DNA of 64,000 nucleotides. Origin: a virus. The notes under the pieces were generated by a model. The model saw nothing but the letters and a program-made list of their open reading frames with translations, did not search any database and was not told the DNA's origin. Numbering within the stretch: position 1 is the stretch's first letter; every line of letters begins with the position of its first letter. Positions 1 to 63,887 of the stretch are shown here, piece after piece. The position numbers and the translations under genes were made by a program. The stretch spans positions 14,237-78,236 of the IMG/VR virus record IMGVR_UViG_3300037041_000399. One strand, 5' to 3'.

Positions 1-5
1 CAGAA

Positions 6-1385
6 TTGCCAGGCATTACAGCACAATTTGCTAAGATGCTAGTAGGTGGTATGTTGAGAAAACCCCCTATTATTGAATTACCTGAGAATGCGCCTGAAGA
101 AGCATTAGACTGGCTTACTAATAACATTGGTAGAGATGATTGTACTCTTGTAGCTTTCTTAGATGATATCTTATGGGAAGAAGTACAGACTTCTAGAGCA
201 TGGATATTTGTAGATTATCCTAATGTAGAAAATCCAGATGCACTAGATAAAGAAGTTAAAGATCAAATTAAACCATATCCTATCTTGCAAAAAGCTGAAA
301 CAATTATTAACTGGTCTACTACAACAAATATGTTTGGCAAGACAGTATTAAATCGTGTTATTGTAAAAGGATATATGGATGATTATTCTGTAAACGAATT
401 TCATGCCACTCGTGTGCCTGCTGTTTGGGTACATGAATTAGATGAGAAAAATGAGTACAGAATTAGAATTTATGCTGGTACTGTTGCAGACAATGGTGAC
501 CAAACAATTAAGCCAGGGGATGCTGCTAGTAGAGGCGATCGTTTATTACCTTCAGGCGGCTTTGAGTTAGTAGCAGTTTTAGACAGCATTATGTCTAATG
601 GTGAAAAATTAACTCACATCCCTGCATGGCCTTTGAACGGCAATATCACTCCTGTAACACCCTTGTTAGCACCTATTGTTGACAAAGAAATTAGCTTGTA
701 CAATAAGATTAGTAGACGTAATCATTTATTATATGGTGCTTCTACGTATACACCTGTTATTGCATCTGATATGCCAGACGAAGAATTTGAGGATATTGTG
801 AATTCTGGATTAGGTGCTTGGATACGACTAAGACAGGGCGATACAGCGACTGTACTAGAAACGCCTACAGCAGCTTTAGCAGATATGCAGGCGGCTATTG
901 CAGCTACTATGGATGAGATGGCTAAGCTTGGTATTAGAATGCTAACAACAGAAAACGAACAATCTGGTGTTGCGTTAGAGATACGTAATGCCTCTCAGAC
1001 CGCACAGTTAGCTGTTTTAAGTACTAAAATATCAAATACAATGAAGCAAGTTATTTGCCTAATGCTTAACTGGCGTTATAACTTAGATTGTGAAGCTTGT
1101 GATATTACATTTGAGCTGTCTGCAGATTTTGATCCAGTACCATTAGGCGCTGATTGGCTAAACTTAATTACACAATGGTATCAAGGCGGATTATTGCCAA
1201 GATCTGTTTGGTTACAAATGTTGAAAGCTAATGATATTCTAAATGCTGAATATGATGACGAAGAGGCATTAGCAGAAGTTAATAACGATCAGCAAATTAT
1301 CCCTGCTGCAACTAAATACAATGATCAGTATGCCTTGCAAACTGAGGCAGCTGCAACTGGAAAGGCCTCTGCGCCTAAGGAGTAA
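6..1385 (+). CDS. Portal protein (DUF4055/SPP1-like), probably 5'-truncated by the window edge
   Basis: First gene of the head cluster; helical C-terminal half (SGVALEIRNASQTAQLA...SADF...LKANDIL) typical of siphovirus portals; followed by MuF, scaffold and capsid genes. Confidence 0.8.
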   Translation: MPGITAQFAKMLVGGMLRKPPIIELPENAPEEALDWLTNNIGRDDCTLVAFLDDILWEEVQTSRAWIFVDYPNVENPDALDKEVKDQIKPYPILQKAETIINWSTTTNMFGKTVLNRVIVKGYMDDYSVNEFHATRVPAVWVHELDEKNEYRIRIYAGTVADNGDQTIKPGDAASRGDRLLPSGGFELVAVLDSIMSNGEKLTHIPAWPLNGNITPVTPLLAPIVDKEISLYNKISRRNHLLYGASTYTPVIASDMPDEEFEDIVNSGLGAWIRLRQGDTATVLETPTAALADMQAAIAATMDEMAKLGIRMLTTENEQSGVALEIRNASQTAQLAVLSTKISNTMKQVICLMLNWRYNLDCEACDITFELSADFDPVPLGADWLNLITQWYQGGLLPRSVWLQMLKANDILNAEYDDEEALAEVNNDQQIIPAATKYNDQYALQTEAAATGKASAPKE

Positions 1386-7927: not shown

Positions 7928-7944
7928 CTATTTGGTTGGGAGAC

Positions 7945-7961
7945 CCCGTTAAATTAACCCT
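7945..7961 (+). promoter_or_regulatory. Repeated motif CCCGTTAAATTAACCCT, copy 1 (putative phage RNAP promoter)
   Basis: 16-nt core occurs 5 times, always in intergenic DNA and the same orientation; AATTAACCCTCA matches the start of the T3 promoter consensus. Confidence 0.75.
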
Positions 7962-8029
7962 CAGCCGTCTCCCCCTATATTATAATTAATTATAATGATA
8001 TATAATATAATATATATCTCTTATATAAC

Positions 8030-8794: not shown

Positions 8795-10015
8795 ATGGCT
8801 GCAACAAGCGTTAACTATACCAGCGGAACATCTGGTAATAATAACAATTATGTATTACAAGAAGCTATTGGTGCTTATAGCGATGAAGCTTACACCACTG
8901 CTCGTAAACTTTCTGGTACTGGAATCACATCTAGCAACCCACAAATTGATACTAACACAGAAACCTTTATTGGTCAAATGCGTTGGTTAAAACCTTTAAA
9001 TCCAACTATCAATATTGCGTCTTTAACAGATGCTACTGATGGTGCTAAAACTAACTATCAATCAGAATTTAGTACTTACATTAAAACTGTTCGTACTCAT
9101 GGTGCTGAAAAAGTCAACATGACTGAAGTAGTTACACGTCAAGATGGTTTAGCTAAAATTGGTCGTGACTTTGGCGAAACTCGTGCGCAAGACGAACACA
9201 ATGCAATTCTTTCTGTATTGAAAGGTGTTGCTATTTCTGAAGCACTATTAGGCACTGGCACAGGCGGCTTAGGCGGCCAAACTTTCACTAATGATCCTAC
9301 AAGCATGAACAACGGTTTCTACGTTGATTTAGGCTCTACAGGTAAAATTGTTAGTGCTAATGGTGTATCACCTGCTGGTGTTGCTAACTATGCATACCAA
9401 GGTGCATCACGTGCAGAAAGCCTTTTAAATGCGTTCGGTCAAGCTTTCAAAGACTACGAACCAGAATGGGCATACTTAGCTGTGTCTCCTGAAGTATTAG
9501 CGTCTTTCCGTTCAGCTAATTTCGTTGATGAAATTACTATTACCGAAGGCAACATGAACTTCCAAACAATCTTCAATGGTAAATTCCGTTTGATTGTTAC
9601 ACGTGCTAACCAATCTTTAAGCACTGATGAATTGACTGCCCTTAACTTAGGTGCTGGTGTTGACATTACAGGTACTAAAACCTCATTTATTATCTTACCT
9701 GGTGCTATTGCAATGGAATCATTAGCAGTGCCTGATTCTACTGAAGTATACCGTGATGCTAACAAATACAAAGGTGGTGGTGTTACTTCTGTCTGGTCAC
9801 GTTGGGGCTATGTATTAGCACCTGCTGGTTATGACTGGAATGGTGATGTAACTAAATTCCCAAGTGATTCTGATTACTCTCAATTCCGTGCTGCTGGCGC
9901 AACTGTTGCTGCTACTGGTGTTAATGCAGGTAACCGTGCAAGTGTACAAGGTGCTTGGAAACGTAAAGCGTCTTCTGCATTGTCTTTAGGTATCTTGCCT
10001 GTATTCCATTCTTAA
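8795..10015 (+). CDS. Major capsid protein
   Basis: 406 aa, strongly biased codon usage, strong RBS, position between scaffold and head-tail adaptor. Confidence 0.8.
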   Translation: MAATSVNYTSGTSGNNNNYVLQEAIGAYSDEAYTTARKLSGTGITSSNPQIDTNTETFIGQMRWLKPLNPTINIASLTDATDGAKTNYQSEFSTYIKTVRTHGAEKVNMTEVVTRQDGLAKIGRDFGETRAQDEHNAILSVLKGVAISEALLGTGTGGLGGQTFTNDPTSMNNGFYVDLGSTGKIVSANGVSPAGVANYAYQGASRAESLLNAFGQAFKDYEPEWAYLAVSPEVLASFRSANFVDEITITEGNMNFQTIFNGKFRLIVTRANQSLSTDELTALNLGAGVDITGTKTSFIILPGAIAMESLAVPDSTEVYRDANKYKGGGVTSVWSRWGYVLAPAGYDWNGDVTKFPSDSDYSQFRAAGATVAATGVNAGNRASVQGAWKRKASSALSLGILPVFHS

Positions 10016-34163: not shown

Positions 34164-36866
34164 ATGTCAACTGACTATATAATGGTCGGAGATTCGTGGG
34201 TAAATACAAGTTCCAGTTCAATTACGGATGCTGTAACCTCGCAGGTAATTCCTGCGGGGGCTACGGCTACGTGGACTGGTGATACTTGGATTATATCTGA
34301 CAAACCTACGGCTTCAGGCTCAACAGCTCCTGCTAATCCCACAGAGGGGCAACAATGGATAGATACCTCAACTACGCCAGCAGTATTAAAGGTCTATCAT
34401 CAATATTTGAATCCACAGTGGGTTTCAATATCCACATTTGTAACACAAGGTACTGATATTGGGGTAGCAAATGGTGCTACAAGGAACATGAATCAAGGGA
34501 CATATGATTCAACAAAAACGTATATATTAGGTGATATTGTAACACTTGTTGGGAATAGTTGGACATGTTCTGTAGCAACTAGTGGTAATGCACCTCCTAC
34601 AGATAGTACAACAGTATCAAATACTTGGTGGAAATTATTAGCAGCAAAGGGTACTGATGGTGCTTCAGTTACGATAGCTGATTTGTTATCAGAATCAGAT
34701 GTAGTACCTGCAGATGCTGAGGGTAAAAATTATACACTTCCAACCGGTAATAAGTTACGGCTATATATTGGAGCTACCATTCAAACAGCTAATGTTACAT
34801 ACTCTGTTAGTAGTGCTCAATCAGGGTTAATAGCTGTCATCGATCCGACAGGTTCAATCAGCTTTAGTGGAACTTGGACAAGTGATTTAGCACAATTTAC
34901 GTTTACTGCTACTTACTTCTCAGTGCAATATACGGCAGGTTATACAATAGCTAAAGCAAAGAAAGGCACTAATACTGTACTAGTGGATATCAAATCAGAT
35001 GCTGACGTTATACCTGCAAAAACTGACGGTACTGGATTTACGCTACCAACTGGTAATGCCATTGTGGTTTATGATGGTGGAACATTAGTTACTAATCCTG
35101 TTAGCGGAACTGCTGTTATTTCATATAGTGTTGCAGCAACCCCATTAAACAGGCTTGGTCTAGCTATTGATAACTTTGGTAATATAACTTTAAATCAAAG
35201 TACAGGCGCATGGAACAGTGACGGCGAGTCTTTTACAATCAATACTACTTATAAGGGGATTACATATACTAATATTTACACAATTGCTAAGGCTAAAGCG
35301 GGGGCTCAGGGCATTTCTACTTATCTAGCTTCTGTGTATTATAACGGTACGCCCTCAGGCGCTCCTACAGGTGGTTCATATAATTTTAGTAGTAATGTAT
35401 TTACTGGTCCAACAACTGCTGGCTGGCAGAAAACTCCATTTGCTGCTACCACAACAGGGCAATATGTATCAACACAGATATTCACATCTAATAATGGTGG
35501 GGTGTCTATATCATGGTCAACTCCTGTATTGTACAATAAGAATGGTATTGATGGTAATCCAGGTGGTCCAGGGACTCCGGGTACTTCATTTTATAGCGCT
35601 ACTGTGTATTTGCAGTCACTAAGCACGCCTAGTGCGCCTACTGGTGGTTCTTATACATTTGGTGGTACATTGACAGCGCCAAGCGGTTGGTCTAAGACAC
35701 AGCCTGCTACTACTACAACACCTACATGGAGTTGCGAGTATACGTTTAGTACGACAACAGCTGGTGCTACTGTAAACGGTGGTACATGGCAAAATGTTAA
35801 AATATGTGCTCAAAATGGTACTAATGGTGTTAGTATTAAAGGTGATCAAGGCAAATCAGCTACACGCGCGTTCACTTTAAGTACAGTTGGTACTCCAGCT
35901 ACTATTACAAATTACACAACAGATGGCGTAACAAGTCTACCTGCATCTACAGCTAATAGTTGGTCTAGTATAACTCTGTCTCCTAGTAATAACCAAGCGC
36001 AGTGGCAATCAGATGGCATAATAGACTATGTGACACAAAAAATTACATGGGGCGCACCTTACCTTACCGTATTTAAAGTTGATACATTATCTGCGTTTAC
36101 GACTAATACCGGTGAATTAAATGTTACCGGAAATATTAATATGACATCTAATAGTATGGCTATTAGATCAGGTACTGCAGTCACATTTGGCAGTGCTGGC
36201 TATTATATGGGGTTAAATGCTAGTGGTAAAGCTTTGTTATCTATAATGGCTGATGCTAGTAATGGTATTAAATACGATGGGTCAACTAACACTATTTCAT
36301 TACTAGGTAAAATAATTACTAGTGGAAATCTTGCTACTAACTCTGTATTAAATGACGCAATAAAAGCAGGAGAAGTAAGCACAGCTTCTGTAGCTACTAA
36401 CGCTATTACAAACTATTGGTATAAGCTTCGACAAACAACAGATAATACTGGCTATCCTTATGCTGTACCAACAGCTGGTGCAATTACTTCAGATTCTTTT
36501 GACGAATTCACAGTAACCGCTGCAGGCGTATTAGAGATAACTATAATTAGTGTTGTGCAAAATAAATCAACATCTACTGCATATCGAATAGAAGGATGGA
36601 CGTCTATCTCAAAGAATGGAACTTTTAAAGATACGCTTAGAGATACTAGATTTGAGGCATTGGATGCTGGGGTTGCTAGTAATAACTTCCAAGCGGGTAA
36701 CTCAGGCGGCACTTCAGGTTCAATGCGTAGTTTTGTAATAATGCAACAAATTGAAGTAGCAGCTAATGATAAGATTATTGTAAAAGTTTCGCACAGACCA
36801 CATGCAAGTCAAAGTGTGTTGTTTGTAAAATCAAACAGTTATTCAGCTGTATTATATAAGAGATAA
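34164..36866 (+). CDS. Tail fibre / receptor-binding protein
   Basis: Thr/Gly/Ser-rich; internal duplications (LPTGN modules, APTGGSY modules); CBM5/12-like YDSTKTYILGDIV; followed by fibre chaperone. Confidence 0.7.
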   Translation: MSTDYIMVGDSWVNTSSSSITDAVTSQVIPAGATATWTGDTWIISDKPTASGSTAPANPTEGQQWIDTSTTPAVLKVYHQYLNPQWVSISTFVTQGTDIGVANGATRNMNQGTYDSTKTYILGDIVTLVGNSWTCSVATSGNAPPTDSTTVSNTWWKLLAAKGTDGASVTIADLLSESDVVPADAEGKNYTLPTGNKLRLYIGATIQTANVTYSVSSAQSGLIAVIDPTGSISFSGTWTSDLAQFTFTATYFSVQYTAGYTIAKAKKGTNTVLVDIKSDADVIPAKTDGTGFTLPTGNAIVVYDGGTLVTNPVSGTAVISYSVAATPLNRLGLAIDNFGNITLNQSTGAWNSDGESFTINTTYKGITYTNIYTIAKAKAGAQGISTYLASVYYNGTPSGAPTGGSYNFSSNVFTGPTTAGWQKTPFAATTTGQYVSTQIFTSNNGGVSISWSTPVLYNKNGIDGNPGGPGTPGTSFYSATVYLQSLSTPSAPTGGSYTFGGTLTAPSGWSKTQPATTTTPTWSCEYTFSTTTAGATVNGGTWQNVKICAQNGTNGVSIKGDQGKSATRAFTLSTVGTPATITNYTTDGVTSLPASTANSWSSITLSPSNNQAQWQSDGIIDYVTQKITWGAPYLTVFKVDTLSAFTTNTGELNVTGNINMTSNSMAIRSGTAVTFGSAGYYMGLNASGKALLSIMADASNGIKYDGSTNTISLLGKIITSGNLATNSVLNDAIKAGEVSTASVATNAITNYWYKLRQTTDNTGYPYAVPTAGAITSDSFDEFTVTAAGVLEITIISVVQNKSTSTAYRIEGWTSISKNGTFKDTLRDTRFEALDAGVASNNFQAGNSGGTSGSMRSFVIMQQIEVAANDKIIVKVSHRPHASQSVLFVKSNSYSAVLYKR

Positions 36867-36869
36867 AAT

Positions 36870-37322
36870 ATGTACTATTTATTAATATTTGACAAGAATA
36901 CAAAACTTTCAACAGGATCTGCCATTGTATCCGAATTGGAGAAAACTCCTGACTATATTCAAGTAGAACTTTCTGAGGATGAATTTTATAACCTTAAGAA
37001 TAACTCTAATACGTTAAAGTATGAAAATGGGGAGATTAAAAAATATCTGCCAAGACCTTCGTTTGCGCACTACTGGGATAATAATCTCAATGAATGGTTA
37101 TTAGACACTGCTCTCGAATTTAGTTTAAAATCTGATGAAGTAAGAGATTTACGTCTAGCTAAGTTAAACGAGTTAGATAAATTTACACAGAACCCCCTTC
37201 GTTGGATGAGCTTGTCAGATGAGCTTAAGAATCAGTTAGCGGTTTATAGGCAAGCTTTATTAGACGTACCTCAACAAGAAGGTTTCCCATTAACTATAAC
37301 TTGGCCGGAGAGTCCAGTATGA
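36870..37322 (+). CDS. Tail fibre assembly chaperone
   Basis: C-terminal YRQALLDVPQQEGFPLTITWPESP motif. Confidence 0.8.
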   Translation: MYYLLIFDKNTKLSTGSAIVSELEKTPDYIQVELSEDEFYNLKNNSNTLKYENGEIKKYLPRPSFAHYWDNNLNEWLLDTALEFSLKSDEVRDLRLAKLNELDKFTQNPLRWMSLSDELKNQLAVYRQALLDVPQQEGFPLTITWPESPV

Positions 37323-37501
37323 GTTATTTATTTGCACGATTAAAAGAGCCATCTACATGGTTTGGTATTATCTCATCTACTCTAGCATCATTAAGTGCTT
37401 TTAAAGTGGTAGAATTGTCACCAGAACAAATGGACGGTATATTAGCATTGTCTGTTGCCATCTTAGGTGGCGGACATGTAACTTCAAAGGATCCTGAATA
37501 A
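37319..37501 (+). CDS. Putative holin
   Basis: MSYLFARLKEPSTWFGI plus two hydrophobic segments; ATG overlaps the upstream stop (ATGA). Confidence 0.6.
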   Translation: MSYLFARLKEPSTWFGIISSTLASLSAFKVVELSPEQMDGILALSVAILGGGHVTSKDPE

Positions 37502-37509
37502 AGGAGATT

Positions 37510-37534
37510 GCCCTGACTTCGGTTGGGGCTTTTT
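37510..37534 (+). terminator. Intrinsic terminator ending the late operon
   Basis: GCCCTGAC-TTCG-GTTGGGGC-TTTTT (cUUCGg loop). Confidence 0.85.
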
Positions 37535-37537
37535 AAT

Positions 37538-38056
37538 ATGAAATTTAGAAAATCAAACATAAAAGAATTAAATAAATATTATGATGTAGCAATTGAGTGC
37601 TCATTATCAAGTAGAGTACCTGAATTTACATTAGACAAAGATTATGTACTTAAGGTGATATCAGATCTAATGCATGGAGAATACTTTAGAGTAATAGAAT
37701 ACAAAGATGAAGTTGTTGGCTGGATGGCGGCTAATAAGAATAATGTACAGTTATATAATACCAGAGATGTATTATCAGTCACTAGTTATCAATGTATACT
37801 CAAAGGTCGTAAGGCAATTGAGGCACTAATAGATATTCATGAGGATCTATATGATTTTGCTATATCTAGAAAGTATGAGCTAGTTGTAACCAATTCAGTA
37901 CTTAATTCAAGGAATACATTTAATCGAATACTTACGCAAGAAGGCTGGCTGGATCGCAACAGCGTGTTACTGCGAAAAACCCCCCATTATTTGGCCAGTA
38001 GCGGGGGCAGACGTGCCGTTCGGCCTCAGACCATTACGGAAGCCATGGGGCGGTGA
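37538..38056 (+). CDS. Hypothetical protein, possibly GNAT-fold
   Basis: MKFRKS...FRVIEYKDEVVGWMAA pattern; C-terminal tail runs into the GC island. Confidence 0.4.
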   Translation: MKFRKSNIKELNKYYDVAIECSLSSRVPEFTLDKDYVLKVISDLMHGEYFRVIEYKDEVVGWMAANKNNVQLYNTRDVLSVTSYQCILKGRKAIEALIDIHEDLYDFAISRKYELVVTNSVLNSRNTFNRILTQEGWLDRNSVLLRKTPHYLASSGGRRAVRPQTITEAMGR

Positions 38057-38220
38057 AAACGGGGTAGAGAGGGGCAGATTTGCAAACTGGTCGCCTGTGG
38101 CACGCGGGGCGTGGGGCATGGCTGAGGGATCGGGGCGGCAGTTGCGGGGCAAGACGGGTGGTTTCTGGTTGCAGAATGGGTAGTTCTGTGGCTGGTTATC
38201 GCCCGTTTTTTACGCACCAC
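38001..38220 (+). repeat. GC-rich island with iterated GGGGC
   Basis: ~63% GC by hand count; GGGGC at about 38004, 38047, 38071, 38106, 38113, 38132 and 38146, all on the + strand. Confidence 0.75.
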
Positions 38221-38223
38221 AAA

Positions 38224-38240
38224 CCCGTTAAATTAACCCT
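38224..38240 (+). promoter_or_regulatory. CCCGTTAAATTAACCCT motif, copy 3
   Basis: Exact motif; downstream CCG..CCCCCTATATTA also shared with copy 1. Confidence 0.75.
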
Positions 38241-38274
38241 TCTCCGTTCCCCCTATATTATTAATTCTAATAAT

Positions 38275-38304
38275 GCGGAAATAATAGTATCTTATATGAA
38301 GTAC
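38275..38304 (+). promoter_or_regulatory. Second motif class GCGGAAA-N5-GTATCTTATATGAAGTAC, copy 1 (putative early promoter)
   Basis: 25/30 nt identical with 39386-39415, same spacing; 24 nt upstream of ATG 38329. Confidence 0.7.
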
Positions 38305-38328
38305 TATAATAACCTTTGGAGATACATT

Positions 38329-38724
38329 ATGTTAAGATTAATTGCTACAAAAGATCGTAAAACAATTGCTGTTGTTTATGGTAACATCGTTGCAGATATG
38401 GCTGAGTTTTTACCTGTGTGGCGGTCACACAAGTGGTTTAACATTTATACAAACTTGGAATACAAGTCTTTAGAGGAATTCCTTTGGAAATCTCTAGAGG
38501 AGAATGATTCGTTGTTTCAATATAGACCTTGGGATGATCATTACTATGTGCCAACTACAATGACTATTAGACACAACGGGCATGAGGCTTATAGCAGATT
38601 TATGCAGAATATTGATTGTACTTATACTTTGTATACTGTGTATGAAGACTTGACGGGCGTCGTTGCTAACTTTAAAGATAAGAAAGCTATTAAGAAATGG
38701 CTTAAAGAACAGGGGATTAAATAA
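38329..38724 (+). CDS. Early hypothetical protein (true start MLRLIATK)
   Basis: RBS ggag before ATG 38329; the upstream extension in the ORF track is GC-island/promoter DNA. Confidence 0.6.
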   Translation: MLRLIATKDRKTIAVVYGNIVADMAEFLPVWRSHKWFNIYTNLEYKSLEEFLWKSLEENDSLFQYRPWDDHYYVPTTMTIRHNGHEAYSRFMQNIDCTYTLYTVYEDLTGVVANFKDKKAIKKWLKEQGIK

Positions 38725-39226
38725 TGAAATATGAAGTAGTTATACTCAATCAGAATGCTGATCTTTATACCAAGACAAGCTTATTAGACGCTTACTTAAA
38801 CTTTGAAAAGTACACAAGTAAGATTGTAATTGCGGTAGACAAAGAAACAGGTGCTTTTAAACATGTTGCTAATGTACAGCAATTAAGAGAAGTATCTGCA
38901 AGATTATTTTATATGGGAGAGTTCAAATGAGTACTGTAATGTTTATGATCGATGCAGTTTTAGATATACGCGTTAGAACACACAGTGTGTTTGATTATGT
39001 TCTTTTTGAAGCTGAGTGCTACGATGAATGTATTACACTCCTGGACAGTGCTGATGCACGTCTTAGGGTTGGTGACAACTATTCATACAGCTGGAATCAC
39101 GTTCACTGGGACGGACAAAGGCTGGAATCTTTTATAACTTTGTTAGATCTTATTGAGCATGACAAGTACAAACTTAACGTCCTAACAGAAGGACATCTAT
39201 TTCAGCAAGGGGTATTAGTATTATGA
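38724..39226 (+). CDS. Two translationally coupled early hypothetical proteins (38724-38930, 38927-39226)
   Basis: Overlapping stop/start codons and RBSs. Confidence 0.55.
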
Positions 39227-39385
39227 GTGAATGGTATAGCTTTATTGAAGCAATGTTAACAATTGGTTTTTATTGTGTTTATGTGTTTTACAATGTGTTT
39301 GCAGAGCATTGCGAAGGACAGCGTAAGTATCGTAAAGTGCGTAGCTGGAATCGTTCAGCTATGCAAAAAGATTATAAATAAAAAC

Positions 39386-39415
39386 GCGGAAAATGGGGTA
39401 TCTTATATGAAGTAC
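39386..39415 (+). promoter_or_regulatory. Second motif class, copy 2
   Basis: GCGGAAAATGGGGTATCTTATATGAAGTAC, 40 nt upstream of ATG 39456. Confidence 0.7.
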
Positions 39416-39455
39416 AATAAGGTACCTCAATCAATTAATTATTTGGAGTATTATC

Positions 39456-39890
39456 ATGAACCTATTGAACACAACAACAGCAACTACAGTAAACAACGTT
39501 AGTATCCGTTTCGCAGACAATGGCACACGTATTGAAATGCGTGGTGAGTTTGCAGCCATCCGCGAAGTAATCGCAAGCAACCCAGGAGTATGCATCGACA
39601 TGGACATGTATCAAGAAGGCCTCGACGAAGTAGTCGGAGGTATCTTCAATCGTGATGCACAACGCATCATCCTTGAGTTGACCTCAATGGGTGTTGAGCT
39701 TGAGAGAGACGGCTACAACACTTTCCGTGAAACAGGCCTAATGAATAACGGCTTTGTTCGCATTCGTGTATCAGAAGTAAATCTTCAGTTGCTAGCTGGA
39801 GAATCAATAGCTCGCCAAACAGCTGTAGCGGATGCAATCGGCGCATCAGTTACAGGCTCAATGCGTGGCTATGTAGTCTCAATGTGGTAA
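39456..39890 (+). CDS. Early hypothetical protein, highly-expressed-type codon usage
   Basis: RBS ttggag; C-ending codon preference (atc, ttc, aac). Confidence 0.65.
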   Translation: MNLLNTTTATTVNNVSIRFADNGTRIEMRGEFAAIREVIASNPGVCIDMDMYQEGLDEVVGGIFNRDAQRIILELTSMGVELERDGYNTFRETGLMNNGFVRIRVSEVNLQLLAGESIARQTAVADAIGASVTGSMRGYVVSMW

Positions 39891-39933
39891 ATGTATAAGA
39901 TAGTGCCAACAACTAACTTTAAAGGTGAACAAC

Positions 39934-40080
39934 ATGAATCCAGTACAAGCAGCACAAGCAGCAGTAGACGCGAAATTATTAGCAATGAAGATCGAACATG
40001 ATGCAAGAATTAAAGCATTAGATGAAGATAAAGAATTCGCTAAAATGCTAGCAGAAATGCAAGCTAAGCTTAAATGCTAA
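39934..40080 (+). CDS. 48-aa coiled-coil early protein (not in ORF track)
   Basis: MNPVQAAQAAVDAKLLAMKIEHDARIKALDEDKEFAKMLAEMQAKLKC; RBS aaggtg. Confidence 0.55.
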   Translation: MNPVQAAQAAVDAKLLAMKIEHDARIKALDEDKEFAKMLAEMQAKLKC

Positions 40081-40084
40081 TAAA

Positions 40085-40112
40085 AGACCTGAGTAGGTCT
40101 CTAAACTGCTTA
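40085..40112 (+). ncRNA. H-type pseudoknot RNA motif, copy 1
   Basis: AGAC-C-TGAGTA-G-GTCT-CTAAAC-TGCTTA; covaries with the copy at 45170. Confidence 0.65.
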
Positions 40113-40167
40113 GTGTCTAAGGGATGTGTATCCCATACTGATGATGGTTCAAAAGAACCGAAACACT
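40112..40167 (+). ncRNA. Type III hammerhead ribozyme
   Basis: GUC cleavage triplet 40115-17; stem I TA-A-GGGAT/ATCCC-A-TA; CUGAUGA 40138-44; stem II GGTTC-AAAA-GAACC; GAAA 40160-63; stem III AGTGT/ACACT. Confidence 0.85.
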
Positions 40168-40187
40168 TAATTATTTGGAGTATTACT

Positions 40188-41298
40188 ATGTTTAACAAAA
40201 TCAAAAATTATTTAAATGGCAACAGAAAAGAAATCGATGAAGCCAGAGAATTCCTTATCACATGGCAAGAAGGCCAAAAAGCTGCTGATGAACTAGTAGC
40301 TAAGTTTGAAGCAAAAGCCTTAGTAATGAAACTTGAAAGATTAGCGAGAGAACGTCATGCTTAATGCTAAAGTGTTGGACTACACTAAAAAGTTCGGGAA
40401 AGAAGTTCTTAATGTTCTTCAAACACCTGTCTTTGAGATTAAAATTGGGGAACCCAAACCTCAAGAACCAACACAAGAAGTTAATGATAAAGCAGATGAA
40501 TTAGCTGCTATGGTCGAACTCTTACAACGAAAATTTAATGGCTTATAAAGGATATTATTATGTTTACTTTTATTTCACACTTGTTCATGTCTCCATTTGA
40601 AATTTTTATGGAAACACTATTAAGCCCAATGGGTTTAATTATGATTGTAACGTTTGCATTAGCCATTGTTGGTTACTTCAAAGTACGTCAAGCCAGAAAG
40701 AATCATGCGCACATTGTTGTTATCAACTTGTGGGAATTGATCTTCTGGGTATCAGTTGTTATAACTTCAGGTTGTAACTTAGTATATGCAATCATGCATC
40801 CTTCAGTCTTTTGGTGATTTATGAAATTAAAATTTGCTTTCTATACATTGCTAACTATTCTAGTAGCAATTACAATGCTGTATGTAGGTGCGCTTCTTTA
40901 CAAAGTAGCGTTGTTGTTAATCGCGGTATTATTACTAATCATCGGATACCAAGTATCTGAATTAACACGGAGATTTACAAATGGCAGCTAACATAAGGCT
41001 TCAAGGTTTCTATCCAGTAGCAACTGAAAAGGTTTTAAATGAAGAAGCTCCTGGGGATCTATTCTTATCTCCTTTAGTGTATAGGCATACCGTGCGTGAA
41101 GTTGATGCAAGTCAGTTAGTTGTAATGGAAGATGTAGAAAAATTCATGTGTGGTTCCGGATGGGACTTCGCAGATGTAGTAGCTGTAGCAGATTTAACAG
41201 GAACAATTCCAATACCATTTTATGTGTTGAAGGAAAAGATTCCAAGGCTTTTAACCTTGGTTAATAGGTACAAACCAAGATTTATAGAAACTGTGTAA
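40188..41298 (+). CDS. Cluster of small early hypothetical genes (40188-40364, 40357-40548, 40560-40817 membrane protein, 40981-41298)
   Basis: Tightly packed ORFs with RBSs; first start reassigned to ATG 40188 (MFNKIK) after ttggag. Confidence 0.55.
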
Positions 41299-41304
41299 AA
41301 CAAA

Positions 41305-41359
41305 CCCTCTCTGGCTCCTTCGGGAGCTGGGGAGGGCTTTCTCTCTTATTTTTTTTTTT
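41305..41359 (+). terminator. Long cUUCGg hairpin with displaced T11 tract
   Basis: CCCTCTCTGGCTCC-TTCG-GGAGCTGGGGAGGG, 12-nt spacer, T11. Confidence 0.75.
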
Positions 41360-41556
41360 CTCAAACTGCAAACTTTGTAACCTTAGCTCATAACTGATGC
41401 CTTCGGGCATCGAATCTTTGTAGTCTACCAGGACAGCTATGAAGAATATTCTACAGGATTCGATTCTGTTATGTGCTTTAATTTTGTTTAATGGCATTCG
41501 TATTGAAACATTTACGATGTTTATCTTTTTAACCTTAATACTACCTAGGAATCATA

Positions 41557-43776
41557 ATGCGGAATAAGTTATTAAAGTCTTTACGTACAAGAATTGCTGT
41601 AGAAATTGCACCACAATCTCCAATTAAGTTTTTAAAGAAGCTTGACATAGAAGAGCATCTAGATGAGATTATTGCAAACACTTACTTGTACACAAGACCT
41701 AAAAAGGGTTCTGACAAGGAAATTATAATGTCAGAAGTAATTTGTATTATTGGGCACAATATGCGAAAGGGCGAAAAGAAAGATTCAGCTACAGCAGCCA
41801 GATGTGGTGCTTTTATTTTATACTCATTTGCAGAGCTAGGCCTCACAGAAATAGTAATGACTAGTGCAGCTAATGGCCACGGCACATACGTAGTTAAAGT
41901 CGTAGATGAAAAGAGTATGCAGGAATTATGGGAAACAGTATCTAGACAGGGTGGTAAGGGTAAATTACCATCAGCAACACCATATGCAGATTGGACAAGT
42001 TTTAGGCATGATACAGGTGCCGTTTTAGTTAAGACACAATCAAAAGCTGTAGCAGAAATCTTAACACCTGAAACACATCCAATTGTATTTGAGTCTATTA
42101 ATAAAAGTCAAAGAGTAGGTTGGCTGATTAACAAAGAAGTCTATAATATTGCTAAGTGGGCTTTAAGTAACAAAACAGAAGCATTCAGTGATATTTGGGA
42201 ACAGCATAATCCACAAGCACGTACAACTAAATTAAGAGAGACTAAAGCTATTCTTAGTATTGCAGACAAGTTTACTGATATTCCTTTTTACCATTTGTAC
42301 TATCTAGACTTTAGAGGTCGTAAATATCCAACTACAGCGTATCTACATGAGCAGTCTTCTGACATTGCTAAGGGCTTATTAATGCGTCAAGACAAGAAGG
42401 TTATTGGACAAGATGGTTTCTTTTGGCTATGCGTATCAATTGCAAGTAACTGGGCAGGTAACTCAGGTAGAGAAGATGGTGCTAAGACAGATAAAATACC
42501 TCTAAAAGACAGATATCAGTGGGTACTAGACAATGAAGAAATTCTGACAGCGTATGCACTTTCGCCTAAGCTAAATCAAGGCTGGATGGAAGCTGATAAG
42601 CCTTGGCAATTCTTAGCTGCTTGTATTGAGCTTAAGAACGCGTTAAGTATGGGTTCTAGTTATCTTCAGTATGAGTCTCATGTAGAGTGTTTCATTGACG
42701 GTTCTACTAATGGCTCACAGCATTTAAGTGCTCTCACTAGAGATGAAATTACAGCACCATATGTTAATTTAGTACCATTAGAAATGCCTGGAGATTTATA
42801 TGCATACGTGGCTAACCATGTGTGGAGTAAAATCTCGACTATTGTAAATGCAATGTCGCCAAGCTTAGTATTAGAGTGTGAAGAATTTATTGATGGATTA
42901 ATAGCGTTAAAAAGAAAGATTGTTGCGGCTGAACCCAAATCAGAGTTACGTAGTCAATTAGTGTCACAAATAAGAGCATACAAAACAAAATGGACAGATG
43001 TCGGTGAAAAGGCTTCTCCAGTATTTTGGCATAGAATTAAAGATAGTAAGCAACGTAGAAAGATTGTTAAAAGGAATGTAATGACATTACCGTATGGCGG
43101 TTCAGGGTATGGCTTGTCAGAACAACAAATTGATGATTCTAAAAAGCATGGTATAGAATTGTTAATGAATATGGAACACAAATGGGCATCATGGATGGGA
43201 CGATTAGTATTTGAAGATGCTAAAGAATCTTTACAAAGACCTATGATGCTATTAGAAGTATTTGAGAAAGCTGGAGCAGCTGCTGAGAAGAAAGGTAAAT
43301 TCTTAGAGTGGACAGTGCCTGTTACAAATTTCCCTGTAGTGCAAAATTATACAGAAGGTCGTACTAAAAAGATACATATTCAATGGGGTCCGAGAATTGG
43401 CATTAGGAGTGAAACCACCGGATACTTTGGAAATGATATACAATTACATATATGTTTTATTGAGGATCAAGTACCCTCAAAAGGAAAGCAGTCCCAAGGA
43501 GCAGCACCAAATGTAATCCATTCATTGGATGCAGCGCACTTAGCGATGACAACAGCTAAATGCGATTTTCCTATTACGACTATACATGATTCCTATGGCT
43601 GCCTGCTTGCAGATATGCCTAAGCTATATCAATGTGTGCGTGATACTTTTGTCGAGCTTTACCAAGAGAATCCTTTGTTTCCCCTGATCGATAAGATAAA
43701 TGGCGATTTAAGCTATTTAGATATGGGTGAGCTGGATGTTAATTTAATTCTAGAAAGTGAATATGCTTTCGCATAG
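41557..43776 (+). CDS. T7-like single-subunit DNA-directed RNA polymerase (second RNAP)
   Basis: DFRGRKY; motif A FIDGSTNGSQH; motif B RKIVKRNVMTLPYG; PNVIHSLDAAH; motif C TIHDSY. Confidence 0.95.
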   Translation: MRNKLLKSLRTRIAVEIAPQSPIKFLKKLDIEEHLDEIIANTYLYTRPKKGSDKEIIMSEVICIIGHNMRKGEKKDSATAARCGAFILYSFAELGLTEIVMTSAANGHGTYVVKVVDEKSMQELWETVSRQGGKGKLPSATPYADWTSFRHDTGAVLVKTQSKAVAEILTPETHPIVFESINKSQRVGWLINKEVYNIAKWALSNKTEAFSDIWEQHNPQARTTKLRETKAILSIADKFTDIPFYHLYYLDFRGRKYPTTAYLHEQSSDIAKGLLMRQDKKVIGQDGFFWLCVSIASNWAGNSGREDGAKTDKIPLKDRYQWVLDNEEILTAYALSPKLNQGWMEADKPWQFLAACIELKNALSMGSSYLQYESHVECFIDGSTNGSQHLSALTRDEITAPYVNLVPLEMPGDLYAYVANHVWSKISTIVNAMSPSLVLECEEFIDGLIALKRKIVAAEPKSELRSQLVSQIRAYKTKWTDVGEKASPVFWHRIKDSKQRRKIVKRNVMTLPYGGSGYGLSEQQIDDSKKHGIELLMNMEHKWASWMGRLVFEDAKESLQRPMMLLEVFEKAGAAAEKKGKFLEWTVPVTNFPVVQNYTEGRTKKIHIQWGPRIGIRSETTGYFGNDIQLHICFIEDQVPSKGKQSQGAAPNVIHSLDAAHLAMTTAKCDFPITTIHDSYGCLLADMPKLYQCVRDTFVELYQENPLFPLIDKINGDLSYLDMGELDVNLILESEYAFA

Positions 43777-43785
43777 GAGTTTATA

Positions 43786-45163
43786 ATGCAGTTAATGACA
43801 ATTCGTGAGTACTTAGAAATGATTGAGTTTGAAGTGTGCTATCAGACATTGAGCCACAGGCTAACCTTGCTAGGGGTCAAACCTCTTCATTTCAAACGAG
43901 TTGGTAAGAATTTAGCAGGGTTATTTAAATTGTCTGATTTACAAGCTGCTGGTAATTACAAGAAAAGGCTACCACGTAAGCCACAACCTATAGTCTTGCA
44001 AACAGAAATACTTACTTTTCTTAGTAACCCTTTAACACCTGTACATCGCTGGTACGGCTACAGAAATGAGGAATTAAAATGGCTTTAACAATGTTTCCAG
44101 GCGGTATTAAAGAGCCTCAAGATAGAATACTTCTTGTGGTACAAGGCAAGCCAGAGCATATAGAGCAACTCAATGAGATGCTTAAAGCTGGATGGAGAGT
44201 AGCTGAAATTATTTCTCTTAGTGGATTTGCAAATCTACCGGGAGAAGCACATTATTTACTTAATAGAGGAGATACGTTATGAAGATCTTAAGAACACCTT
44301 TACACAAGATTGTATCAGGTTCAACTGGAGTAGCTAATCCAGCTTTCTTAAATGCAGCAGCTTTAGGGCCAGAAGAAACTATAACTGAGATTATTAACAA
44401 GGCTATGACATACACAAGAGAACCTGCAACAGAAAAGTTCTCTACAGAAGTTTTGGCATACGTTAATAATGTAATTAATATGTACCTAAGAGAAATCTTA
44501 GTTAACGGTACTTGCTATAAGCATCACTTAGCTACAAATGATGTAGGGTTTGTATTTGATGTATCCTACTCTACAACAGTAGGTAAAGGTACAGGAATTA
44601 GCGCTGAAGTGCAAGTACTACAAGATGATGATACAATTAGAGATTTCTATTTGCATTATCGTGTTGTGCTACCAAACGGTACTACAACAACATGGCGCAT
44701 TGACAGCGTTGAAGATAGCAACTGGTTGAGCTATATGGCTCAAGAATAATAGGAGAATAAAATGAAAGATAAATTAGATACACTATTAGCATTAGCTTTA
44801 GTCCACAATTGGACTGTTGATAGAGAAATGGGCTATGAAATTGCAGAAGTAAAAGAATTTCATGGCACCGATCTTATAGAGTGGGACGAAGACTTTGCTG
44901 AAGAGATTGAAGAAGAATATGATGAAATGATGTATGTCTTTAGAAAAGACGGCACTGTCTTAACGTATAATGAAGAATCAGGCAGCTACTTTAACTTCTA
45001 TGATGCATTACAAGTAGAGCCTGATCCTCTTGAAACCTATTGGAGAGAAGCAATAGCTGATAGTACATATGATACATTCTTAACAGAAAATATCAAACGC
45101 GGTAGCATACGAGAACCGAATCCAAACTATCCGTCTGAAGAAGACTTAAGAGTGACTTACTAA
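43786..45163 (+). CDS. Four hypothetical genes (43786-44088, 44079-44282, 44279-44749, 44762-45163 acidic)
   Basis: Coupled ORFs with RBSs downstream of the RNAP gene. Confidence 0.55.
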
Positions 45164-45169
45164 GTAATA

Positions 45170-45197
45170 AAGCCTGGGTATGCTTCTTAACTGCCCA
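45170..45197 (+). ncRNA. H-type pseudoknot RNA motif, copy 2
   Basis: AAGC-C-TGGGTA-T-GCTT-CTTAAC-TGCCCA; same geometry as 40085-40112 with compensatory changes. Confidence 0.65.
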
Positions 45198-45219
45198 CAA
45201 CTGACAGAAGGAGGTAGTC

Positions 45220-45597
45220 ATGTTAGGAATGACTCCAACACTATGTCTCGTTGCTGCAATGTACTTCGAGGCTAGAAACCAAACGTCCGATGCCATGTTA
45301 GGTGTCGGTCAAGTATTAATGGAGAATACAGAGAATGGCAAAACTATGTATGACACATTGAAAAAGAAGGGGCTGTTCTCTTGGGCTAGGAAAGGAGTTA
45401 AAATACCTAAACCTAAGAGTCCGGCGGACGTTGAAGTTTTTGAGCATCAGCAGAAGCTGGCGCGAAAAATGCTTTTCAAACAACTTAGAACACCTTTATT
45501 ACGAGGTAAGTATAGGTATTTTAATAATTGGCAACTAGGCAGGCGATTTAAGACTAATGTACCGTTAGTTAGAATTGATGACTTAGTTTTCTATTGA
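45220..45597 (+). CDS. SleB/CwlJ-like cell wall hydrolase (Hydrolase_2)
   Basis: CLVAAMYFEARNQ...GVGQV...FSW...IDDLVFY signature. Confidence 0.75.
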   Translation: MLGMTPTLCLVAAMYFEARNQTSDAMLGVGQVLMENTENGKTMYDTLKKKGLFSWARKGVKIPKPKSPADVEVFEHQQKLARKMLFKQLRTPLLRGKYRYFNNWQLGRRFKTNVPLVRIDDLVFY

Positions 45598-45604
45598 GGA
45601 TTTT

Positions 45605-46526
45605 ATGGACAATATTAGAGCAGTAATTGATTATGTAATTGGGTCTGAGGCGTATGACTATGAAAACTACGTAACTGAAGTTTGGTGGGATCGAGACTTT
45701 TCACTAGAGAATAAAGAGCAACTAGAGATATCTTTGATAGATCCAGAAGTTGATCATCCCTATAAGACTGCAGTACTAGCACAGAGAGAGCTAGGAACCT
45801 TAGGAAAACCTGAACCTGTTTTTCTAGACCTAACAATGGATCAGTTTGCGGCATTAGTATCATGAGTGTCTGGGAATATCTACTAATTGCCTACGCTATA
45901 TTAGCTACGTATCGATTAGGCAAAGTTCTACAAGAGCTTATGCGATACAAAGAACATTGTGCTGATTTAGAAGCACGATTAATTTTAACAACACTAGGTA
46001 AAAGACCTGATGACAGCCTTCACTAACGATGAAAGCCTTGAGCTATTACATTTATTAACTTTACTTGGCGCTATAATAGGAATGCCTGAAGATCACGAAG
46101 CAGACAACTATAAGTTAACTGCAATTAAAATTATTGAATTTAAGGAGAACCTACATGCTAGTCTTGAAAACCGTTTATGATGTACGTGTATTGCCTGAAA
46201 GCTATAAAGATGTATTAGTTGATTTGGAGCCTGTCATTGGTGACCTTTCAAATCACCATGAGCTAATGGATAAGCTAGGCGGTAACGTATATATCCTTGA
46301 AGAAGAAGCAGAGTTAGAGAATATCGAAGTATATGACTTAGATCATGGAAATGGTACCTTACTTACTATGCCAGGCTCATTTGACATGGCTGAGAGATTT
46401 GCAGGTGACTGGGTAAAAGTCATGAATGTTACTTCTAATTCAGGAGGTGCTGTTTATTATATACCGCCTGCAGTTGCAGACCTTAACGATCATGTGTCCG
46501 AAAGTATTGATCTTTCGAATTACTAG
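45605..46526 (+). CDS. Small hypothetical genes (45605-45865, 46134-46526 and two short ORFs between)
   Basis: ORFs with RBSs; acidic. Confidence 0.45.
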
Positions 46527-46528
46527 AC

Positions 46529-46544
46529 CCCGTTAAATTAACCC
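46529..46544 (+). promoter_or_regulatory. CCCGTTAAATTAACCC motif, copy 4 (ahead of replication operon)
   Basis: Exact 16-nt core 30 nt upstream of the SSB start. Confidence 0.75.
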
Positions 46545-46574
46545 CTTCTAAACATTTATACATGAGATTTAAAA

Positions 46575-47045
46575 ATGGCAAATTTATATAATTTGGAAAT
46601 ACACCACCCAAACCTTGTAAAAGGTAAGAATAACTATGATCCAAGTAAACCTAAATGGTCTGCTATGTTAGTAACTAAAAAAGAAGCACAAGCAAAAGAA
46701 GTTGCAAGTATGGGAATTAAAGTTACTGAGTTTAAAACTAACGAGGGTAAGATAGCTTGGAAATTTAACGTAAGCAAGAATGTAACAAAGTTTACAGGAG
46801 AGCCAAGTACCCCTATTAGTGTTGTAGATATGGACGATAATCCATTGCCGAAAGATAATATTGGTAATGGTAGTATTGTAAATGTCAGATTATTTGAACG
46901 AGAATACGTAAACAAAGCCGGTAAGCCTGCAATAAGTTATATACTAATGGCAATACAAATTGTTAAATTGATTGAGTATAAGCCTACAAAACCTGGTGAT
47001 TTTCCTCCTGCTGCTATTGAGTACGAAGATGGAGATGTATTCTAA
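46575..47045 (+). CDS. Single-stranded DNA-binding protein (T7 gp2.5-like)
   Basis: IGNGSIVNV motif, AIQIVKLIEY, acidic tail ending in Phe (EYEDGDVF). Confidence 0.75.
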   Translation: MANLYNLEIHHPNLVKGKNNYDPSKPKWSAMLVTKKEAQAKEVASMGIKVTEFKTNEGKIAWKFNVSKNVTKFTGEPSTPISVVDMDDNPLPKDNIGNGSIVNVRLFEREYVNKAGKPAISYILMAIQIVKLIEYKPTKPGDFPPAAIEYEDGDVF

Positions 47046-63802: not shown

Positions 63803-63887
63803 CCCCCTCTCTACTCTCTCATTTGGATGCCTTCGGGTGTTCATTTGGGAGGGTAGGGAGGGATTCCCTTATTTTTTTTTTTTTTTT
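63803..63887 (+). terminator. Very long cUUCGg hairpin with displaced T16 tract
   Basis: CCCTCTCTACTCTCTCA...GGATGCC-TTCG-GGTGTTC...TGGGAGGGTAGGGAGGG, then ATTCCCTTA, T16. Confidence 0.75.

Follow-up and report, generated by a model that had tools for sequence, protein, structure and literature searches.

The window analysed here is a stretch of 64,000 nt (bases 14,237-78,236) from the 78,236-bp IMG/VR virus record IMGVR_UViG_3300037041_000399, in which a 127-bp overlap of the ends, its length equal to a common assembler k-mer, probably marks a circular assembly. All genes lie on the + strand, and the genome has a GC content of 37 %. Between the tail genes and the gene of a free T7-like RNA polymerase (RNAP2) lies a region of small open reading frames (ORFs), the early region, headed by the first of two copies of a bipartite sequence element that we term class 2. 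A different motif, class 1, is found ahead of other modules, and a second RNA polymerase (RNAP) is encoded as a fusion to a MuF-type head protein (Table 1).

The 18-mer GTATCTTATATGAAGTAC occurs on the + strand at 38287-38304 and 39398-39415, in both cases as part of the 30-nt pattern GCGGAAA-N5-GTATCTTATATGAAGTAC with the same N5 gap (38275-38304 and 39386-39415), for which 0.00 occurrences are expected in shuffled sequences. The initial annotation had reported this twofold occurrence with identical spacing as well as the location of each copy shortly before a ribosome-binding site (RBS), and both observations were confirmed: the copies are intergenic, share the orientation of the genes and lie 31 and 47 nt ahead of RBS-led ORFs, with the GCGGAAA of copy 2 beginning 5 nt past the stop codon of the ORF at 39223-39381. 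No further match to GTATCTTATATGAAGTAC was detected at up to three mismatches in the window or at up to four in the whole record. Thus, the claims that the element is found nowhere else and is restricted to the early region hold for this genome but not for the whole family, as some relatives carry an additional full copy 14-20 kb downstream. The proposed likeness to the initiation region of SP6 promoters shrank to a generic TATA followed by G, since the AAGTAC that comes after TATAT and GA is not kept in relatives and the resemblance to the SP6 sequence TATAGAAG is weak; the TATATGAAG end alone is not above chance (28 matches at up to one mismatch, 32.9 expected).

Like the promoters of the T7 group, class 2 is a long, nearly invariant and strand-specific motif, repeated and placed directly upstream of genes, and it has the appearance of a promoter that a phage single-subunit RNAP would use. 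The family-wide conservation of ~29 nt, the co-orientation with genes, the short 5' untranslated regions, the end of conservation at +2 and a covarying hairpin from +1 strongly support the view that the early region is headed by a promoter class specific to the phage.

Conservation and predicted transcript start

We scanned 15 long relatives (12 obtained via the fused polymerase and three others; 13 of the 15 at least 90 % complete by CheckV), and all 15 contain two to four exact 13-mer cores on the gene strand, while a control pattern read backwards gave one match in 17 records. Among relatives retrieved with RNAP2 (47-98 % identity), one to four gene-strand copies of the motif precede RNAP2. 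Those found through the fused polymerase (67-98 % identity) amount to 180 stretches in IMG/VR, and the motif is present in all 12 long contigs searched, that is in 12/12 contigs bearing this putative virion polymerase. Scanning IMG/VR with the bipartite pattern itself returned at least 119 matching stretches. The consensus from 128 distinct sites reads AAA-Y-GCG-S-AAAA (-27 to -16), R (-12) and GTATCTTATAT followed by GA (-11 to +2), and ~25 of the positions from -27 to +2 are conserved across sets of 51-128 distinct sites. The smaller set of 51 distinct sites was collected by the core alone, and its upstream positions are thus free of search bias. At these unsearched positions, A-27/A-26, a pyrimidine at -24, G/C at -20 and AAAA at -19 to -16 are kept, with counts of 45/51 for G-23, 51/51 for C-22, 50/51 for G-21, 49/51 for both A-18 and A-17, and 51/51 for a purine at -12; the 128-site set confirmed the free positions, with a pyrimidine at -24 in 126/128.

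Searches allowing one mismatch retrieved few core variants accompanied by the upstream element (GCATCTT..., CCATCTT..., ATATCTT... and ...TATGC), which argues that the core is nearly invariant while RNAP2 diverges to ~50 % identity. The motif is identical in relatives with GC-rich or AT-rich flanks, and an RBS with a same-strand ORF of at least 40 amino acids (aa) follows within 200 nt in 102 of 116 sites, at a median distance of 43 nt. Judged from its distribution among these sequences, the element is family-wide and not a recent duplication. The additional complete promoters of relatives, 14-20 kb past the early cluster (G012:54332, equivalent to L175:1501; G011:59723, equivalent to L177:1501; also in G013, G018 and G004), head strings of small ORFs, and this genome has none of them.

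A diverged version occurs in the closest cultured phages, the deoxyuridine (dU)-DNA roseophages DSS3_VP1 and DSS3_PM1 (Naomviridae), whose gene order is the same and includes both a MuF-RNAP fusion (31 % identity) and a free RNAP (33 %). DSS3_VP1 contains a T7-like motif, ATAGGGTGCGTTAAAGAGG, in 13 copies across the middle and late modules, as well as two copies of AAAAAGTGAGAAAA-N6-GCATCTATAATGA where the early region begins (35,810 and 36,257), after the tape-measure gene, with the core alone once more at 67,794. Three uncultured relatives (L022-L024) carry AAAAAGTGAGAAAAA-N4-GTATCTATAATGA twice upstream of RNAP2, and the form joining them with DSS3_VP1 is AAAAAGTGAGAAAA(A)-N4-6-G(T/C)ATCTATAATGA, again at the start of the early region and upstream of RNAP2. 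The core of L022-L024 equals that of the window at 10 of 13 positions, G-N-G and the A-run are equally distant, and the genome position is the same; this shared core, spacing and position indicate that the two-motif layout predates the split of the two clades. As Naomviridae DNA has dU in place of deoxythymidine, T-rich promoters would be read there as U-rich DNA. The Naomviridae papers mention neither RNA polymerases nor promoters, and among the papers open to our search we found none on the class-2 motif, the MuF-RNAP fusion or the Naomviridae transcription programme.

These comparisons bear on whether class-2 sites might instead be promoters of the host RNA polymerase, with a housekeeping or an alternative sigma factor, like the early A1-A3 promoters of T7. 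The sites do lie upstream of a phage RNAP gene, where T7-like phages put host promoters, the Naomviridae version has a perfect TATAAT, and the motif is present in bacterial chromosomes too. However, the two clades share no -35/-10 register, the core of the window's clade has T in place of the essential -11 A, and the conserved GCGGAAA is only 11-13 nt from any -10-like hexamer, in contrast to the 16-18 bp that separate the hexamers of a sigma-70 promoter. A scan with the sigma-70 consensus found no + strand site overlapping either copy, and such sites are not enriched between 37.9 and 46.7 kb (27 found, 29.9 expected). Furthermore, ~25 invariant or nearly invariant positions persist across phages of very different GC content and presumably different hosts, and bacterial genomes have exactly one copy, within a mobile island, rather than many. 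We consider a host promoter very unlikely.

Conservation ends abruptly after GA, at +2, and the sequence downstream varies between sites. The layout near the proposed start comprises AAAA at -19 to -16, ATAT at -4 to -1 and G then A at the presumed +1 and +2. In minimum-energy folds of the first 30 nt, the first paired base of a hairpin is exactly the G of GA in 28/51 and 59/128 sites, and hairpins from +1 reach -4 kcal/mol or lower in 23/51 and 47/128 sites, compared with 18.5 % (hairpin at the start) and 7.2 % (-4 kcal/mol or lower) among random GA-start windows from the same loci. The signal falls when the window is shifted by -2 or +1, and the 3' arm covaries with the variable bases +3 to +8, as exemplified by GAUAAGC...GCUUAUC and GAAUAGGA...UCCUAU. 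Copy 1 has no hairpin comparable to the 5' stem-loop predicted for copy 2. A primary transcript starting from this G would carry a stem-loop at its extreme 5' end, as do many T7 late transcripts. From the end of conservation, the hairpins beginning at +1 and the distances to the ORFs we infer G38298 and G39409 as start sites.

The hairpin that follows the motif in many copies, and the position of copy 2 inside a co-directional gene string, where processing is plausible, could also be read as signs of something other than a promoter, such as an operator bound by an early regulator, a site of RNA processing or stability, or a signal for replication or packaging. This seems scarcely probable to us, given the strict orientation and placement before RBS-led ORFs (median 43 nt), the conservation on the DNA upstream of a variable hairpin and its end at +2. 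Moreover, copy 1 and the island copies described below head gene strings, one island copy sits in a divergent intergenic region without a co-directional gene upstream of it, and no Rfam family was found in the early region.

Three lake metatranscriptomes contain relatives at 90-99 % identity as assembled contigs. In one RNA library, a contig from a close relative stops at 38317, 19 nt past the proposed +1, which is a weak hint at best. Another RNA contig matches only 54 nt around copy 2 (39386-39439) and has unlike flanks, which indicates that promoter and leader are conserved far better than their surroundings.

The two polymerases and the proposed cascade

RNAP2 matches T7 RNAP structures in a search of PDB sequences (E 2e-44), whereas the same kind of search with the fused polymerase gave no match. 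Nevertheless, in an alignment of the fused polymerase with T7 RNAP, RNAP2 and both DSS3_VP1 enzymes, it keeps the catalytic residues of T7 RNAP (D421/R423/R425, D537, H784 and H811/D812). The MuF-RNAP fusion is encoded in 4/4 long motif-bearing relatives tested (three of these relatives complete, one a 59 % fragment). About 232 aa of the fused polymerase (~5266-5964; residues ~1103-1334) have no counterpart in the close relatives G001 and G003, where the matching parts on either side of the gap adjoin directly. In others the gene is interrupted: it lies in three pieces in G004, and in EBPR siphovirus 1 a gene for an HNH endonuclease separates gp47 from gp49. The fusion gene seems to be a hot spot for insertions.

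The class-1 motif, CCGTTAAATTAACCC, has seven copies in the record and precedes several modules, those for the capsid and for replication among them. Its subtype 1b, in which an AT-rich start region follows, is confined to the part downstream of RNAP2 in the direction of transcription. The three sites of subtype 1a (window 7942-7985 and 38221-38261; record 246-290) consist of the core, CCGT, a C-run and TATTAT/TATAAT, and each lies 50-100 bp upstream of another promoter, namely a 1b site (7942-7985), class 2 (38221-38261) and a 1b site (record 246-290). The 1a pattern also reads as a sigma-70-like promoter, TTAACC-17-TATTAT.

Whichever enzyme reads class 2 would have to be present at time zero, because RNAP2 is absent until its own gene, downstream of all class-2 sites, has been transcribed. 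With the host enzyme being unlikely and RNAP2 absent at that point, elimination leaves the fused polymerase, and with moderate confidence we regard the class-2 sites as early promoters read by a packaged, MuF-fused polymerase of the T7 family. The background on MuF/gp7 head proteins is given in PMC5512222. In the course of infection that we propose, the fusion protein would be carried in the capsid, injected with the DNA and active on double-stranded DNA at time zero. It would recognise a bipartite promoter made of AAA-Y-GCG-(G/C)-AAAA (-27 to -16), a purine at -12 and the invariant core GTATCTTATAT (-11 to -1), and would start at the G of GA. The class-2 sites would drive two co-directional units of small early genes, from which transcription would pass a hairpin/T-run attenuator into the RNAP2 gene, and RNAP2 would then succeed the packaged enzyme, transcribing the replication and structural modules from the class-1 promoters (CCGTTAAATTAACCC) that precede them. 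A cascade of this kind had already been suggested in the initial annotation from two motif classes and two RNAPs; the positions fit it, whereas the assignment of enzymes to motifs comes by elimination and a class-1a site stays unexplained.

No conserved promoter was found directly upstream of RNAP2, where only hairpins and T-runs are present. A hairpin with a long T-run just before RNAP2 is also found in the relatives L005, L016, L020 and L021, which suggests that RNAP2 is dosed by attenuated read-through. Hairpin/T-run spots were noted at 41305-41360 and 63845-63885 in the window, at ~9900-9990 in L020 (more than 40 T) and at ~9940-9990 in L021.

The two enzymes might also have exchanged roles, RNAP2 reading class 2 and the packaged MuF-RNAP reading class 1 from the 1a site at 38221-38241 onward. 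It is class 2 that has the canonical T7-group layout (A-rich at -19 to -16, ATAT before +1, G at +1), RNAP2 that strongly matches T7 RNAP while the fused polymerase has no PDB sequence match, and a class-1 site that comes first among the early-region motifs, here as in relatives. Yet RNAP2 would then be left mainly re-transcribing the early genes and its own gene, and expression of every replication and structural module, each behind a class-1 site, would depend on the small number of injected molecules. Sites of class 1 that have an AT-rich start are situated downstream of RNAP2, as T7 promoters are relative to gene 1, and the known phages with a virion RNAP (N4 and P23-45) reportedly use the packaged enzyme for the earliest genes only. 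Altogether, we deem the exchanged assignment unlikely.

Several observations nevertheless weigh against the fused polymerase as the reader of class 2. Class 2 is more T7-like than class 1 (A-tract at -19 to -16, ATAT at -4 to -1, G at +1), and RNAP2 is the more T7-like of the two enzymes. A class-1a site directly precedes the early region here and in relatives, and a simple two-step model leaves it unexplained. What points to packaging in the capsid and ejection with the DNA is homology to MuF only, and the invariance of the core in the large site sets is partly ascertainment, as the searches used the exact core. In addition, every genome that is informative has the two motifs together with the two polymerases, offering no phyletic separation. 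EBPR siphovirus 1 has class-1-like sites only, in a partial record without the early region; the fusion is missing from the L022 contig, which, being incomplete, would stop short of the genome part concerned; and Pelagibacter phage Kolga, with a MuF lacking a polymerase, a free RNAP and no convincing class-2 site, is too distant to serve as a control.

Beside the class-1a/class-2 pair, a stretch of ~260 bp (37960-38220) that is strikingly GC-rich in appearance separates it from the last late gene; it has no Rfam match and might serve as a packaging site or an origin, or mark a genome end. A search of 37300-46700 against Rfam at E up to 0.1 matched no family, which leaves a hammerhead ribozyme previously proposed in the early operon (40112-40167) unsupported, and among GenBank phages no nucleotide match to the early region was found. 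Tail length usually scales at 1.5 Å per tape-measure residue, and the 3826-aa tape measure would imply a tail of roughly at least 0.5 µm; its C-terminal part contains 48-nt tandem Gly-rich repeats (24715-24944).

Table 1. Positions of the features discussed, in window coordinates or, where an L number precedes, in those of the respective contig
Feature	Position	Strand	Remarks
Portal	3-1385	+	
MuF-RNAP fusion, 1771 aa	1960-7275	+	N-terminal MuF/SPP1-gp7 head domain and divergent T7-family RNAP domain
Capsid	8795-10015	+	
Tape measure, 3826 aa	13918-25398	+	
Further tail genes	up to ~38.0 kb	+	
Class-1 site, subtype 1a	38221-38261 (class-1 site 38221-38241)	+	AAACCCGTTAAATTAACCC, C-rich tract, TATTAT; 50 bp upstream of class-2 copy 1
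Class-2 copy 1 (-27 to +2)	38271-38299	+	GCGGAAA 38275-38281; core GTATCTTATAT followed by GA 38287-38299; predicted +1 G38298
Small early ORFs	38.3-41.3 kb	+	
First early unit	38329-39381	+	Four small ORFs: 38329-38724, 38724-38930, 38927-39226, 39223-39381; RBS GGAG 38318-38321, ATG 38329
Class-2 copy 2 (-27 to +2)	39382-39410	+	AAACGCGGAAAA 39382-39393; core 39398-39410; predicted +1 G39409
5'-terminal stem-loop of the predicted copy-2 transcript	39409-39428	+	GAAGUACAAUAAGGUACCUC, -4.6 kcal/mol
Second early unit	39456-41298	+	Small ORFs; RBS GGAG 39445-39448, ATG 39456
Terminator-like 14-bp stem, then T-run	41305-41360	+	Between early ORFs and RNAP2 gene
RNAP2, free T7-like RNAP, 739 aa	41557-43776	+	Encoded 3' of both class-2 sites
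Further small ORFs, then DNA polymerase, primase/helicase, ribonucleotide reductase, ligase	after RNAP2	+	
First class-1 site past RNAP2	46526-46546	+	Heads replication genes
Class-2-like sites of DSS3_VP1	L067:35775-35821, 36222-36268		GTGAGAAAA-N6-GCATCTATAATGA
Island, Erythrobacter assembly	L204:8795-12974		
Island, Brevundimonas terrae	L205:4520-15000		
Island, Sphingomonas sp. CFBP 13720	L206:4544-19536		
Island, Brevundimonas sp. SH203	L196:986-4509		

Class-2 copies in bacterial chromosomal islands

A scan of one genome per prokaryotic species with the pattern GCGNAAA-N5-GTATCTTATATGA returned 23 stretches, where ~4 are expected by chance (our own estimate, assuming uniform composition). 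One of them (L189) is a mis-binned phage contig, identical to the 74,179-bp contig G017, and several are contigs of metagenome-assembled genomes (MAGs), whose bin membership is uncertain. Large contigs of isolate genomes with the motif belong to Brevundimonas terrae, B. halotolerans, Brevundimonas sp. SH203 and Sphingomonas sp. CFBP 13720, and MAGs or uncultured genomes with it comprise an Erythrobacter assembly and Marinomonas, Caenibius, Cellvibrionales, Crenothrix and Methylococcaceae MAGs. In the copies from isolates and MAGs the upstream element is complete and a hairpin often begins at +1. The exact core occurs once per genome in 5/5 bacterial genomes checked, and no polymerase of family PF00940 was found in 10 bacterial genomes with a search that recovers both polymerases in the phage records.

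The motif sites lie in low-GC islands, two of which adjoin tRNA-Thr(CGT). The motif is followed, on its own strand, by a tandem pair of small paralogous ORFs lacking Pfam matches, then by a VapE-type primase/helicase or a primase-like protein and, after the primase genes, by tyrosine integrases; the Sphingomonas island also has a C5-methylase/BglII-like pair. For instance, the Erythrobacter element of ~4.3 kb contains only the promoter, the two small ORFs, VapE and the integrase, and is located between puhA (on the opposite strand) and trkH. Its motif lies in a divergent intergenic region, where it can act only as a promoter and not as an RNA-processing site. The ORFs of the islands have no homologues among the early proteins of the phages, the promoter alone being common to both. 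The Brevundimonas sp. SH203 island carries a class-1-like site before the primase gene, and elsewhere in the island-bearing genomes class 1 is at chance level.

The island copies support a trans-acting reader supplied by a phage, for which both phage polymerases remain candidates. The islands may be satellites or defence islands switched on by phage infection. More tentatively, we suggest the combined possibility that class 2 is the promoter of a capsid-delivered, MuF-tethered polymerase and, being nearly invariant across a very large phage family, has been captured by islands of Alpha- and Gammaproteobacteria as an infection switch. If so, the incoming packaged polymerase would transcribe the islands within seconds, before any phage gene is expressed. 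The occurrence of the motif in polymerase-less integrase/VapE islands is new here, and the islands point to Brevundimonas, Sphingomonadales, Cellvibrionales and Methylococcales as likely hosts of these hostless metagenomic phages.

Comparison with known systems

Class 2 shares with the promoters of the T7 group (T7, T3, SP6 and K11) a long, nearly invariant and strand-specific signal with an A/T-rich upstream part, a specificity block at about -11 to -5 and an easily melted TATA-like sequence at -4 to -1 before a G, which in class 2 is the presumed +1; many T7-group transcripts begin with a stem-loop, as would many of those predicted from class 2, and the candidate readers of class 2 belong to the T7 RNAP family. 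It differs in being bipartite and longer (-27 to +2), in its variable gap at -15 to -13 and in the GCG at -23 to -21, which is without counterpart in T7. Nothing is kept after +2, whereas T7 promoters are conserved to +6. Beyond TATA-then-G, its sequence has no known relationship to the T7, T3, SP6 and K11 promoters. The proposed reader, furthermore, would be a fusion carried in the capsid and not a free enzyme expressed early. A compact pair of polymerase and promoter orthogonal to T7 would make a useful tool.

In N4 (Schitoviridae), a virion polymerase of the T7 family (gp50) reportedly reads the early promoters and switches on a second phage polymerase. Similarly, a few copies of a phage-specific signal head the early genes here, and the proposed reader would be a virion-delivered enzyme of the T7 family: the two copies at 38.3-39.4 kb precede RNAP2 at 41.6 kb and are confined to the early region, as they are in relatives, some of which have one extra distal copy. 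N4 promoters are DNA hairpins with a stem of 5-7 bp and a loop of 3 nt. Class 2 is not of this type, as the interval from -30 to +2 forms no hairpin on either strand of either copy (minimum free energy of 0 kcal/mol as DNA), and the 51-site logo contains no conserved inverted repeat. In addition, the polymerase here has a MuF head protein as its fusion partner and belongs to a siphovirus-type genome, whereas that of N4 is embedded in a 3,500-aa podovirus protein, and RNAP2 is a single 739-aa chain in contrast to the gp15/gp16 heterodimer of N4.

Another parallel is the Thermus phage P23-45, whose virion RNAP is fused to the tape measure and has its own AT-rich pre-early promoters, while a second, non-virion polymerase uses another motif class (PMC10770324). 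Both are long-tailed phages with a polymerase fused to a virion protein and one motif class before genes that include a second polymerase. The P23-45 enzymes are, however, of the two-barrel (cellular) type and the fusion partner is the tape measure, whereas here both polymerases are T7-type and the partner is a MuF head protein. The assignment in P23-45 relies on chromatin immunoprecipitation sequencing and mapping of transcription start sites, and motif and fusion co-occur in its relatives (PMC10770324); here, the assignment is made by comparison. If correct, it would add a third virion-polymerase solution to that of N4 and to the two-barrel enzymes found in crAss-like phages, phiKZ and P23-45, namely a T7-type enzyme on a MuF head protein with a linear 29-nt promoter instead of a hairpin. 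The family is large (at least 119 promoter-bearing and 180 polymerase stretches in IMG/VR) and reaches the cultured dU-DNA Naomviridae, so that the cascade could be tested on DSS3_VP1 and Ruegeria pomeroyi.

The chromosomal copies, finally, are reminiscent of the enterobacterial “T7 islands”, reportedly described by Chen and Schneider in 2006 as genetic islands with tandem T7-like promoters. As in those, an integrase-bearing island carries the promoter of a lytic-phage polymerase without a gene for such a polymerase, and some are located beside a tRNA gene. The promoter and the phage family are different here, there is usually one promoter instead of a tandem, and the hosts are Caulobacterales, Sphingomonadales, Marinomonas and other Gammaproteobacteria. 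The cargo also differs, with two small paralogous ORFs, a VapE-type primase/helicase and an integrase, joined in one case by a restriction-modification pair. Thus, these polymerase-less islands would extend the idea of the “T7 island” to a different phage family and to other hosts.

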